Source of the DNA: Escherichia coli
GTDB taxonomy: Bacteria; Pseudomonadota; Gammaproteobacteria; Enterobacterales; Enterobacteriaceae
Assembly: GCF_003334335.1 (NCBI RefSeq)
Contig: NZ_QOWQ01000111.1
Reading direction: 5' to 3' (one strand)
Length of the DNA: 1,316 nucleotides
The notes beneath the pieces were generated by a model. That model saw only the letters and a program-made list of their open reading frames with translations, was not told the DNA's origin and made no database searches. Position numbers and translations under genes: made by a program. This document shows positions 27 to 1,316 of this stretch, one piece after another (within the stretch, counting starts at the first letter, position 1; the number at the start of each line of letters is the position of its first letter).

Positions 27-305
27 TTACCTCCAGATGCGTTGCTGGAATGTGCGGGACGGACGCGGTGGGCGTTCAGAGTAAGGAAGCCTGACGGAGA
101 TTATCCAGTGACGATAATCGAGGCTGAGGGTTTTCCTAAACTCATACCCACGTCTGCGGTAGTTCTGAATCAGCCATTCGGCCTGTTCTTCAGTGCATGG
201 GGCGTGCTGGAACCAGTCAGATTTGAATGCATGAGAACGCCGCCCGTGCCTGCTGGCAAAGACGGCTGAATTATCAGAATTGTATAATTTGGTATCGTGC
301 GCCAT
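27..305 (-). CDS. Hypothetical protein, 92 aa from the first ATG (MAHDTKLYNSDNSAVFASRHGRRSHAFKSDW...RIWR); function unknown
   Basis: Longest ORF in the region. The ORF track starts it at TTG 386, but that codon lies inside the hok terminator, so ATG 305..303 is preferred. SD is weak (GAGA) and no family was recognised. Confidence 0.4.
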   Translation of the reverse strand: MAHDTKLYNSDNSAVFASRHGRRSHAFKSDWFQHAPCTEEQAEWLIQNYRRRGYEFRKTLSLDYRHWIISVRLPYSERPPRPSRTFQQRIWR

Positions 306-377: not shown

Positions 378-404
378 AAAAAACAAAACCCGCCGAAGCG
401 GGTT
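378..404 (-). terminator. Rho-independent terminator of the hok transcript
   Basis: Minus-strand reading AACCCGC-UUCG-GCGGGUU (404..387), a GC-rich stem with a UUCG tetraloop, followed by UUGUUUUUU (386..378). No T-run follows on the plus strand, so it is unidirectional for the minus strand. Confidence 0.7.
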
Positions 405-407
405 AAG

Positions 408-416
408 TGCGGGTGC
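408..416 (-). promoter_or_regulatory. 3'-UTR block (fbi-like) complementary to the 5' end of the predicted hok mRNA
   Basis: 9-nt perfect complementarity with 792..800, located immediately 5' of the terminator hairpin in the transcript. Consistent with the fold-back-inhibition pairing described for hok mRNAs. Confidence 0.4.
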
Positions 417-472
417 GTTGAGGATGCCTGACTCATCAGAGGTGGCGAGGGATTTCTCCCCCGCCAGGTCTC

Positions 473-628
473 TTACTCCTCAGGTTCGTAAGCTGTGAAG
501 ACAGTGACCTCCGTCTGGCCGGTTCGGATTCGTACCTCGCAGAGGTCTTTCCTCGTTACCAGTGCCGTCACAATGACGGTAATACAGATGACGATCAGGG
601 CGACTAACATCGCCTTTTGCTGCTTCAT
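473..628 (-). CDS. hok: Hok/Gef-family type I toxin, 51 aa (MKQQKAMLVALIVICITVIVTALVTRKDLCEVRIRTGQTEVTVFTAYEPEE)
   Basis: Manual reverse-complement translation from ATG at 628..626 to TAA at 475..473. SD AAGGAG (643..638) lies 9 nt upstream of the ATG. The protein has the Hok-family hallmarks: ~50 aa, N-terminal hydrophobic helix, conserved LCE motif and C-terminal AYE motif. From memory it is closest to the chromosomal E. coli HokD(RelF)/HokC(Gef) subfamily, differing at a few positions. Confidence 0.9.
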   Translation of the reverse strand: MKQQKAMLVALIVICITVIVTALVTRKDLCEVRIRTGQTEVTVFTAYEPEE

Positions 629-685
629 AGCCTGCTTCTCCTTGCCTTTCGGCGTGTAAGAGGCTAACCTACATGTGACTAGCAT
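473..685 (-). CDS. mok: mok-like regulatory reading frame (70 aa), an in-frame N-terminal extension sharing the hok stop codon
   Basis: ORF-track 70-aa frame starting at ATG 685..683, with SD-like GAGG about 8 nt upstream (697..694 on the plus coordinates). The 19-aa extension MLVTCRLASYTPKGKEKQA is translated across the hok SD. This matches, as I recall, the mok/hok arrangement of chromosomal loci such as mokC/hokC, which share a stop codon. Confidence 0.65.
   Translation of the reverse strand: MLVTCRLASYTPKGKEKQAMKQQKAMLVALIVICITVIVTALVTRKDLCEVRIRTGQTEVTVFTAYEPEE
642..670 (+). promoter_or_regulatory. Putative sok promoter (-35 TTGCCT 642..647, 17-bp spacer, -10 TAACCT 665..670)
   Basis: Hexamers read directly from the sequence with canonical 17-bp spacing. 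The promoter sits inside the mok coding region on the opposite strand, as expected for sok. Confidence 0.45.
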
Positions 686-747
686 GAAATTGGCCTCAGA
701 TTAATGTTAAGCGTCCTGCAAGACGCATAATGTTAACTGGGGCTTTT
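677..747 (+). ncRNA. sok: Putative Sok-like antisense RNA (~70 nt) complementary to the mok translation-initiation region
   Basis: Plus-strand promoter-like TTGCCT-N17-TAACCT (642..670) predicts a start near 675..678. The transcript would be antisense to the mok SD/ATG (683..697). It ends in a long imperfect hairpin (693..743) followed by TTTT (744..747). Size and position match the known Sok RNA layout. Ends are approximate. Confidence 0.55.
693..747 (+). terminator. Putative sok RNA terminator hairpin plus U-tract
   Basis: Imperfect inverted repeat 693..715 / 722..743 with core stem gcgtc/gacgc (711..715 / 722..726) and loop ctgcaa, followed by tttt at 744..747. Confidence 0.45.
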
Positions 748-750
748 CTC

Positions 751-785
751 TGTCTGCCTTACGGTGGCATGCCCGAGGCAGACAG
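751..785 (-). promoter_or_regulatory. Structured hok mRNA leader element: 9-bp inverted repeat (751..759 ctgtctgcc / 777..785 ggcagacag) around a 17-nt loop containing the palindrome ggcatgcc
   Basis: Inverted repeat seen directly. It lies in the predicted 5' leader of the hok transcript, where hok mRNAs carry regulatory stems (tac/ucb region). Confidence 0.5.
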
Positions 786-791
786 CCTCAA

Positions 792-800
792 GCACCCGCA
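792..800 (-). promoter_or_regulatory. 5' leader block (tac-like) perfectly complementary to 408..416
   Basis: Plus 792..800 gcacccgca is the exact reverse complement of plus 408..416 tgcgggtgc. At least 792..797 would be transcribed if +1 is near 797. Confidence 0.4.
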
Positions 801-803
801 GCA

Positions 804-831
804 ATTCTACTTAACTCTCGCTTTACCGCAA
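804..831 (-). promoter_or_regulatory. Putative hok/mok mRNA promoter (-35 TTGCGG 831..826, 16-bp spacer, -10 TAGAAT 809..804; predicted +1 near 797)
   Basis: Minus-strand hexamers read from the sequence; TAGAAT is a 5/6 match to TATAAT. The predicted start gives a ~170-nt leader before the hok ATG, in line with known hok mRNAs. The predicted 5' end reads GGGUGCUUGAGGCUGUCUGCC. Confidence 0.4.
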
Positions 832-843
832 ACCGTTTTTACC

Positions 844-865
844 CGATATGGGAATTCCCATATCG
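844..865. repeat. 22-bp perfect palindrome CGATATGGGAATTCCCATATCG centred on an EcoRI site
   Basis: Read directly from the sequence; it is its own reverse complement. It lies between the stop of the 34-aa ORF (874) and the predicted hok -35 (831), about -47 to -68 from the predicted +1. No T-run follows on either strand, so it is not an obvious terminator. Confidence 0.9.
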
Positions 866-873
866 TAATGAAT

Positions 874-978
874 TCAGTTCCCTAGTCGATCCATCAAAAA
901 CACAACCAGGCAGTAAACACCCACAACAGCAATAACAGCCAGCGCACCTTCCATTGCCAGTGAGATATCATCCGACAC
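874..978 (-). CDS. Candidate small hydrophobic protein, 34 aa with a GTG start (MSDDISLAMEGALAVIAVVGVYCLVVFLMDRLGN)
   Basis: Strong SD AAGGAGG (988..982) followed 4 nt later by GTG 978..976; stop TGA 876..874. One predicted transmembrane segment. An alternative ATG at 980 in another frame gives a 28-aa peptide but has a 2-nt spacer. Found by manual translation. Confidence 0.3.
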   Translation of the reverse strand: MSDDISLAMEGALAVIAVVGVYCLVVFLMDRLGN

Positions 979-1013
979 ATTCCCTCCTTTGGTGTTAATC
1001 CCGGCGAACGCTT

Positions 1014-1097
1014 TTACCCACACCGACAAATAACATATACTAAAAAAGCGATAGCCATAGCAACGCCTGTAATTGCAAATGCTTCAGGCCAGATCAT
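1014..1097 (-). CDS. Candidate small hydrophobic protein, 27 aa (MIWPEAFAITGVAMAIAFLVYVICRCG)
   Basis: Textbook RBS: AGGAGG (1110..1105), 7-nt spacer, ATG 1097..1095. The start codon overlaps the stop of the upstream ORF as ATGA, suggesting translational coupling. One predicted transmembrane segment. Below the ORF-track length threshold; found by manual translation. Confidence 0.35.
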   Translation of the reverse strand: MIWPEAFAITGVAMAIAFLVYVICRCG

Positions 1098-1276
1098 TGG
1101 CGCACCTCCTGCGGCGGTTCTGGTAACGGCATCCAGTCGGTTACATTGCGGCTCTGTGTTTCGAAAAATTCATCACCATTACGGACTACATCAAAAAACT
1201 CACCGTCTCGATATTGCGCATAAAGAACGAATGCGCCATCACATAAAATAATTACGTGCTGACCATCATCCGGCAT
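1094..1276 (-). CDS. Hypothetical protein, C-terminal 60 aa from the first Met; the frame stays open to the right window edge, so the gene may be 5'-truncated
   Basis: ORF-track frame with stop TGA at 1096..1094. Translation upstream of ATG 1276 remains open through 1315 (…PVTPDGWISCSER-MPDDGQ…). Contains a duplicated acidic motif, DGEFFDVV / NGDEFFET. No family recognised. Confidence 0.4.
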   Translation of the reverse strand: MPDDGQHVIILCDGAFVLYAQYRDGEFFDVVRNGDEFFETQSRNVTDWMPLPEPPQEVRQ

Positions 1277-1316
1277 TCGCTCACTACAGCTTATCCAACC
1301 ATCCGGAGTTACCGGA

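Follow-up and report, generated by a model that had tools for sequence, protein, structure and literature searches.

Do the two short hydrophobic reading frames that lie upstream of a hok toxin gene in an Escherichia coli prophage encode proteins and, if so, do these proteins belong to the toxin system? The question is raised by a window of 1,316 nucleotides (nt; the whole stretch of DNA that was analysed, assembly GCF_003334335.1, contig NZ_QOWQ01000111.1), a piece of a lambdoid prophage with all its genes on the minus strand. Between the end of a gene with a DUF551 domain and the type I toxin–antitoxin system hok/sok it contains two open reading frames (ORFs) of 27 and 34 amino acids (aa), here denominated orf27 and orf34. 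The original prediction regarded both as unannotated and offered three explanations, namely toxin-like or modulatory peptides, small proteins of a mobile element, or hydrophobic frames that arose by chance in T-rich DNA. We consider it very probable that orf27 and orf34 are separate, genuine genes for single-pass inner-membrane micro-proteins of a lambdoid prophage, homologous neither to each other nor to Hok. Among the three explanations it is the small mobile-element protein that is borne out, since both are conserved single-helix phage or prophage peptides under purifying selection.

Two genuine reading frames

Start codons, Shine-Dalgarno (SD) elements, spacers and the overlap of orf27 with the DUF551 gene were found as originally described (Table 1), and hok, mok and the sok region are located downstream of both frames. 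Each peptide contains one hydrophobic stretch of 19 residues (Kyte-Doolittle means of 2.45 and 2.72), which agrees with the single transmembrane helix proposed for each. An origin by chance is ruled out by dinucleotide-preserving shuffles. When an SD site, an ATG or GTG start, a length of 20–50 aa and a transmembrane stretch were required together, the window held two such ORFs against 0.0005 per shuffle, and only 1 of 2000 shuffles had even one. The possibility that homologous loci show frameshifts or stops in these frames is likewise rejected, and in both frames purifying selection was found instead. Profile searches with either peptide gave no Pfam, NCBIfam or PADLOC match and no significant PHROG, the best hits (phrog_38566, E = 0.0035; phrog_4612, E = 0.019) being insignificant and both of unknown function. 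In the K-12 prophages Rac and Qin, to which this comparison was confined (DLP12 and e14 lay outside it), no homolog of orf27 or orf34 is present.

The orf27 family

The peptide encoded by orf27 (MIWPEAFAITGVAMAIAFLVYVICRCG) is absent from every RefSeq and phage record inspected, and the claim that it is unannotated therefore stands for this frame. Other alleles have been called by a few GenBank submitters as “hypothetical” or “bacteriophage protein”; an exact look-up of the window allele in a collection of 15 billion proteins found no entry. DNA that is 76% identical (blastn) is located behind DUF551 or Ea22-like genes of Shiga toxin (Stx) phages as well as behind an unrelated gene of the P1-like Salmonella phage SJ46, and in these relatives the peptide is preserved (e.g., MTWPDAFAIVGVAMSIALIVFAICRWG and MSWPEAFAIVGVAMAIAAIFIFWG). 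By tblastn, 92 phage records contain the peptide, among them those of 933W, VT1/VT2-Sakai, BP-4795 and Av-05 (a lytic member of the Vequintavirinae), and so do 181 “plasmids”. The latter fit P1-like phage-plasmids because most of them are about 90–100 kb in size, belong to the non-mobilizable class and carry DUF551/eaa genes.

The extent of the family was explored in IMG/VR with a degenerate DNA pattern that fixes only M-x-W-P-E/D-A-F-A/T, i.e. the first 8 codons. Among the 160 matches in phage or prophage loci 157 are ORFs of 23–30 aa, and 139 are exactly 27 aa long; the resulting set comprises 58 DNA alleles encoding 33 peptides. Near-invariant residues are also found beyond the search pattern, namely G11, Y21, C24, R25, W26 and G27. 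For codons 9–27 of the 58 alleles omega, as a pairwise average over related alleles, is 0.33 in frame versus 0.74 and 2.4 in the other frames. Divergent members occur on contigs with a guanine-plus-cytosine (GC) content of 40–65%.

As a negative control the same pattern was applied to 100,044 species-representative genomes, where it gave 76 matches, mostly chance hits in GC-rich genomes: 47 are located in ORFs longer than 40 aa, and most of the 29 ORFs of up to 40 aa are not hydrophobic. Chance does not account for the matches in one Escherichia species, on a contig that is probably a contaminant and on two contigs (L249 and L250) of Nitratireductor aquimarinus, an alphaproteobacterium and thus a host very remote from the Enterobacteriaceae. 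On these two contigs (e.g., L250 6587-6664) a family member of 25 aa, MNWPEAFAAVGFAFAV.LMVWSV(R/K)R, is found beside a RusA-like prophage gene. Two Bacteroidales contigs (L300, L304) carry a hydrophobic ORF of 24 aa that resembles the family.

The window peptide shows the family features, namely the MxWP(E/D)AF start, a helix of about 17 residues with G11 and Y21, and the CRWG end. Its sole departure is a cysteine at W26, a derived change that is unique to this allele.

More than ten unrelated genes are found upstream of members of the family. The start of the peptide gene nearly always forms a short overlap with the stop of the preceding gene, mostly of 1 or 4 nt (TGATG or ATGA), and in most cases a GGAGG-like element is located within the last codons of that gene. 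The window, with its ATGA overlap and AGGAGG-N7, has the same arrangement. Carriers comprise Stx and other lambdoid phages, the P1-like SJ46, phage-plasmids, Av-05 and the alphaproteobacterial prophage, with or without hok. Downstream, hok follows in a large share of the E. coli loci, and elsewhere xis/int or other genes are found. As an autonomous small gene riding on varied early operons, orf27 is not a component of hok. A specific partnership with the DUF551 gene was considered and rejected because the upstream genes are so heterogeneous, and the literature on DUF551 that was searched does not mention a downstream peptide. An apparent DUF551–orf27 fusion, a “DUF551” protein of 121 aa in the same 90% cluster, turned out to be a clustering artefact, the protein being devoid of the peptide.

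These data suggest that orf27 is a portable small gene attached to the end of early operons of phages, with its SD element placed inside the last codons of whichever gene precedes it. It would be made when the early operon is expressed, either by translational coupling or from its own strong ribosome-binding site. From the charge distribution and the positive-inside rule the acidic WPEAF end is predicted to be periplasmic and the C-R-W-G end to be cytoplasmic. What is given here is effectively the founding description of an unnamed family of phage micro-proteins.

Some further observations concern the orf27 region. In the record of Shigella phage POCJ13 (L003, 1524-1607) two ORFs on the opposite strand are annotated at orf27 (gp73, gp72 region), probably because one antisense frame is open in all 58 alleles. 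A 13-nt inverted repeat (1003-1015 and 1044-1056; 85% complementary, 28-nt loop) pairs the middle of orf27 with sequence just past its stop. A promoter-like site antisense to orf27 (1013-1041, plus strand) is judged to be a chance occurrence, as two such sites were found versus 1.3 expected, and by reading it is not conserved in 933W-type sequences.

The orf34 family

For orf34 the claim of missing annotation did not hold. It corresponds to the hypothetical protein WP_001278450.1 of RefSeq (Prokaryotic Genome Annotation Pipeline) and to ECs_5710 in O157 Sakai, and its exact sequence is found on about 1000 contigs. It is also the same gene as XECs145, which was published as novel from E. coli O157:H7 Sakai (Huecker et al. 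2017, PMC5597208) and whose sequence ends with ...NMSDDISLAMEGALAVIAVVGVYCLVVFLMDRLGN; the copy in Sakai prophage Sp6 is peptide-identical except for its ATG start. This means that orf34 is an already known, translated hypothetical small protein.

Ribosome occupancy, one of the checks originally proposed, is thus available for the orf34 frame, and the published profiling supports translation. According to PMC5597208, in lysogeny broth the gene has an RNAseq value of 79 reads per kilobase per million mapped reads (RPKM), a RIBOseq RPKM of 346, a ribosome coverage value of 4.35 and an ORF coverage of 0.99. The corresponding values are 121, 150, 1.14 and 0.84 in brain heart infusion, and 73, 1.1, 0.01 and 0.37 under cold and salt stress. 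In the same source an inner-membrane protein with one helix is predicted. There the gene is described as an extended ORF of 54 aa with a rare start; in contrast, the conserved SD element and start codon define 34 aa here and 29–30 aa in other clades. Neither the constant linkage with hok nor the clade structure was found described in the passages and supplementary tables consulted, and a literature search on the peptide motif, ECs_5710, XECs145 and WP_001278450 returned nothing relevant.

A scan with a pattern on the conserved C-terminus, YCL..[VFL]LM..L, yielded 125 matches that fall into three clades, clade 1 beginning with MSDDISLAMEGALAV... and clades 2 and 3 ending with ...LVLKCALAIAAVMAIYCLAVVLMDRLSD; a search of 1.84 billion proteins gave 22 representatives. 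Members have 29–34 aa, one helix, the C-terminal signature ...AV..IYCL..V.LM(D/E/N)(R/H)(L/F)xx and an SD element with start codon, all of which are present in the window copy. No clade has lost the start codon or AGGAGG. Members of clade 1 mostly begin with ATG, and the GTG of the window is a derived change. Clades 2 and 3 have a conserved GTG five bases past AGGAGG and 29 aa, and ATG is found in the Shigella virulence plasmids (pINV) and in the divergent members from the large protein search. Within clades omega is 0.22 (clade 1) and 0.12 (clades 2/3) in frame versus 0.8–3.9 off frame. Third codon positions account for 10 of the 19 variable sites in clade 1 and for 18 of 34 in clades 2/3.

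Linkage of orf34 to the hok promoter

The linkage of orf34 is striking. In 121 of 124 assessable matches a hok leader is found within 200 nt downstream, and 57 of these 121 lack orf27 and have many different genes upstream. In the three exceptions hok has been lost just past its -10 element. A divergent member of 30 aa (L308) is located 155 nt upstream of a HOK_GEF gene. In every clade the stop codon lies 10–45 nt upstream of the hok -35 element. As nearly all matches end just upstream of the hok promoter, whatever gene precedes them, orf34 travels within the hok/sok cassette.

A comparison of junctions points to the way in which the window arrangement may have originated. In 933W-type phages orf27 ends with ...TGGGGATAAAAACGGTTTGCGGG and is followed directly by the hok promoter. 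The window type has about 175 bp with orf34 and a palindrome inserted between two imperfect direct repeats (cores 1009-1019 and 834-844; extended to ~1000-1019 and ~826-844), which match the single copy at the orf27/hok junction of 933W-type phages. This suggests an insertion of about 175 bp into a junction of the 933W type. Cassettes of clades 2/3 have a different junction and a different hok -35 (TTGGCG; by scan TTGGCG-17-TAGAAT in L129), as well as about 230 nt of conserved upstream sequence (L129 ~2640-2815) with the hairpin TCCGCTTT...AAAGCGGA. This upstream region also contains a weak promoter-like TTGAAT-17-CATATT, below the scan threshold, as a candidate for the peptide gene's own promoter.

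Shigella virulence plasmids (124; e.g., S. flexneri pCP301, L230 2501-2605) carry an intact, unannotated ORF of the orf34 family with 29 aa and ATG start. It is followed by a truncated, degenerate hok promoter and leader and lies about 290 nt upstream of icsP/sopA.

Every clade-1 cassette has the perfect 22-bp palindrome between orf34 and the hok promoter, and in one case (L014) the palindrome is found in the absence of orf34. Since no T-run follows, it does not qualify as a standard terminator. Its few variants are C>T changes in the 3' arm that would keep G-U pairing in the minus-strand RNA, and it could represent an RNA hairpin or a protein-binding site.

We infer that orf34 has its own promoter and that its transcript reads into hok, since no terminator is located between the two, and would end at the hok terminator. 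Published data (PMC5597208) indicate that its frame is translated in uninduced lysogen cultures.

Alternative explanations

The alternative that survives best is that the locus is a multi-peptide toxin system in which at least one of the two peptides is a further type I toxin or acts directly on Hok as a modulator (an immunity or helper peptide), and we regard it as improbable. It would explain why two small hydrophobic one-helix peptides adjoin hok, why orf34 is joined to the hok promoter in the 121 cases and in the divergent member, and why the orf27 of 933W-type phages is found at this very place, immediately preceding that promoter. However, in Pfam and NCBIfam the Hok_Gef domain is matched by the hok of the window but not by either peptide, no toxin family of Pfam, NCBIfam or PADLOC is matched, and homology of the orf34 helix with Hok was rejected by profile comparison (hhalign, probability 0.6%, some of the aligned Hok sequences having been entered by hand). 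Both peptides have strong ribosome-binding sites, and the frame of orf34 is heavily translated in healthy lysogen cultures, as would not be expected of a potent toxin. A conserved antisense promoter was not detected, and within the window Rfam places a sok-type region at 797..623 only. Many hok cassettes lack orf34, many of the examined orf27 loci have no hok nearby, and Shigella pINV retains the peptide ORF despite its truncated hok. Hence the originally proposed toxin-like nature finds no support for either peptide.

Our best guess is that neither peptide kills the cell and that each modulates a membrane component of the host or of the phage. This appears likelier than toxicity because orf34 is heavily translated in healthy cultures, the ribosome-binding sites are strong and no signal of an antisense RNA is seen. 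The partner of orf34 may be linked to Hok or to prophage maintenance, and a modulatory link to hok is possible for orf34 only, as its family is almost always joined to the hok promoter. There is a bolder version, which taken as a whole we hold to be rather unlikely. Here orf34 would be a third protein of prophage hok/sok cassettes that tunes the action of Hok or the activation of hok mRNA, and orf27 would represent a phage micro-protein of pan-proteobacterial distribution whose invariant WPEAF end is directed at a conserved membrane machine of the host. In that case orf34 would be a constitutive membrane peptide with a transcript that continues into hok, and its effect could, for example, be that of an immunity or helper peptide or could arise from 5'-extended hok transcripts.

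It is very unlikely that conservation is due to DNA or RNA elements (the structure of a transcript, an upstream portion of the hok promoter, or the terminator region and 3' end of the preceding gene) instead of the peptides. Such elements are suggested by the position of orf34 next to the hok -35 with the palindrome in between, and by the ribosome-binding site of orf27 within upstream coding sequence. But variation falls mainly on third positions and low omega is confined to the proposed frames. The clades share start, SD element, length and stop even with DNA that has diverged to 44–76%, ribosome footprints cover the orf34 frame (PMC5597208), and the orf27 peptide is kept behind unrelated upstream genes.

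There is hardly any room for the idea that orf27 is a -1 frameshift extension serving as membrane anchor of the DUF551 protein. Its frame is indeed open for about 18 codons upstream of the ATG in DUF551 contexts, and some database entries carry extended forms of 40–45 aa. Nevertheless, the ATG, the spacing and the GGAGG element are conserved, by reading no slippery heptamer is present in the last codons of the upstream gene, the 933W context has a stop 6 codons upstream in the orf27 frame, and the upstream genes are mutually unrelated. That both ORFs are chance products of T-rich sequence or decaying relics without function is just as implausible, since the derived window alleles (W26C, GTG start), the pseudogene state of the DUF551 neighbour in the closest genome and occasional nonsense alleles are outweighed by the shuffle test, the family-wide integrity of the ORFs, the omega values, the presence in intact inducible and lytic phages and the published translation data.

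Several points weigh against two genuine micro-protein genes. The size cut-off of 30 aa in PMC5597208 left out orf27, and the Ribo-seq reads of XECs145 were assigned to an N-terminally extended ORF that overlaps the 3' end of orf27. These reads may also be multi-mapped because strains carry 1–5 copies of the segment. The omega averages ignore kinship of the alleles, and between the clades of orf34 the N-terminal half, with omega of about 0.8, is too diverged to inform. Within the orf27 family POCJ13 has TGG>TAG at codon 3, one allele has a stop at codon 26 (TGG>TGA), and the O157 allele carries an Asp inside the helix (A17D). The window copy itself has W26C in orf27 and ATG>GTG in orf34 and, with the DUF551 gene being a pseudogene in the closest genome, looks slightly decayed. 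Finally, topology, read-through transcript and the promoter of orf34 are what we infer.

Organisation of the window

E. coli chromosomes carry lambdoid prophages with 99.9% identity to the window. Of 5426 complete genomes of this species 4985 contain parts of the window, as do 354 phage records, most of which belong to Stx-converting or other lambdoid phages. The segment of the window type was detected in 674 of the 5426 genomes and is often multiplied, with 1–5 copies per strain. In the closest annotated genome as well as in prophage Sp6 of O157 Sakai the gene order is end of the DUF551 gene, orf27, orf34, hok/sok, a rem-like gene and a DUF968 (ydfU-like) gene. The annotation of the closest genome and of Sakai Sp6 leaves orf27 in an unannotated gap, places a “hypothetical protein” of 105 nt exactly at 978..874 and gives hok/mok as hokD-type. 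In the near-identical genome the DUF551 gene is flagged, upstream of the window, as a pseudogene. Coordinates are collected in Table 1; the hok promoter was placed relative to the 5' end of hok mRNA as taken from the Rfam leader match. Over the 3' untranslated region of hok and the terminator (383-464, minus strand) the Rfam family isrK is matched below threshold (27 bits, gathering score 50, E = 0.0016), which probably reflects no more than the terminator hairpin.

Table 1. Features of the 1,316-nt window, in the order of transcription (minus strand).
Feature	Position	Strand	Basis and remarks
DUF551-domain early gene, 3' end (...GWISCSERMP...WMPLPEPPQEVRQ*)	1094..1316	-	translation; PHROG 60/924 matches
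SD element of orf27, AGGAGG	1105..1110	-	sequence reading; 7 nt (TGCGCCA) ahead of ATG; inside last DUF551 codons
orf27, 27-aa single-pass membrane peptide, MxWP(E/D)AF...CRWG family	1014..1097	-	ORF, family conservation; ATGA overlaps the DUF551 stop
SD element of orf34, AAGGAGG	983..989	-	sequence reading; 4 nt ahead of start; kept in all clade-1 alleles
orf34, 34-aa single-pass membrane peptide (WP_001278450.1 / ECs_5710 / XECs145)	874..978	-	annotation, alleles; GTG start
Perfect 22-bp palindrome CGATATGGGAA/TTCCCATATCG	844..865		between orf34 stop and hok -35; centre ~60 nt upstream of hok mRNA start
hok promoter	804..831	-	sequence reading; -35 TTGCGG 831..826, -10 TAGAAT 809..804
hok mRNA leader / sok antisense region	623..797	-	Rfam RF01794, 117.6 bits, E = 8e-28
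mok (685..473) with nested hok (628..473), Hok-family type I toxin	473..685	-	ORF and profile matches
Intrinsic terminator of hok transcript	387..404	-	sole terminator-like site downstream of orf27 and orf34
rem-like gene downstream of hok, annotated hypothetical only	27..305	-	PHROG 1212, E = 4e-37

Relation to known systems and significance

With the Hok/Gef type I toxins (Pfam PF01848; Rfam RF01794) the two peptides have in common that they are small one-helix inner-membrane peptides on prophages or plasmids, and orf34 is physically part of hok cassettes. They differ in being shorter and in lacking the conserved periplasmic domain and Cys pattern of Hok. Moreover, no overlapping mok-like frame, antisense RNA or fold-back mRNA structure was identified for orf27 or orf34. 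The second group for comparison comprises AcrZ, MgtS, KdpF and CydX, chromosomal small inner-membrane proteins of bacteria that modulate larger membrane proteins as their known partners. Like orf27 and orf34 these have fewer than 50 aa, a single helix and short charged ends, are conserved among close relatives only and usually escape annotation. In contrast to them the two prophage peptides are phage-borne, are not known to have a partner and presumably share no sequence similarity with them.

A third comparison is offered by phage “morons”, autonomous insertions of promoter, gene and terminator that are expressed from the prophage. The unit of orf34 and hok/sok resembles such an insertion between early genes, flanked in the window type by imperfect direct repeats, and it has a terminator of its own and is expressed in cultures of lysogens. 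It differs in that the promoter of orf34 is a putative one. The dependence of orf27 on the transcript of the upstream gene means that this gene is not a moron.

The system hok/sok is a textbook type I toxin–antitoxin system, and Stx and other lambdoid prophages shape the biology of enterohaemorrhagic E. coli. Its length of 27 codons and its overlap with the preceding gene explain why the family of orf27 has been largely missed in annotation. With orf27 and orf34 two defined families are added to the catalogue of phage small membrane proteins, and nothing is overturned. While orf34 itself was known before, the literature consulted contains no description of its constant attachment to hok. As a well-translated membrane peptide that almost never occurs apart from the hok promoter, it becomes a candidate for an effect on killing by Hok or on prophage maintenance.

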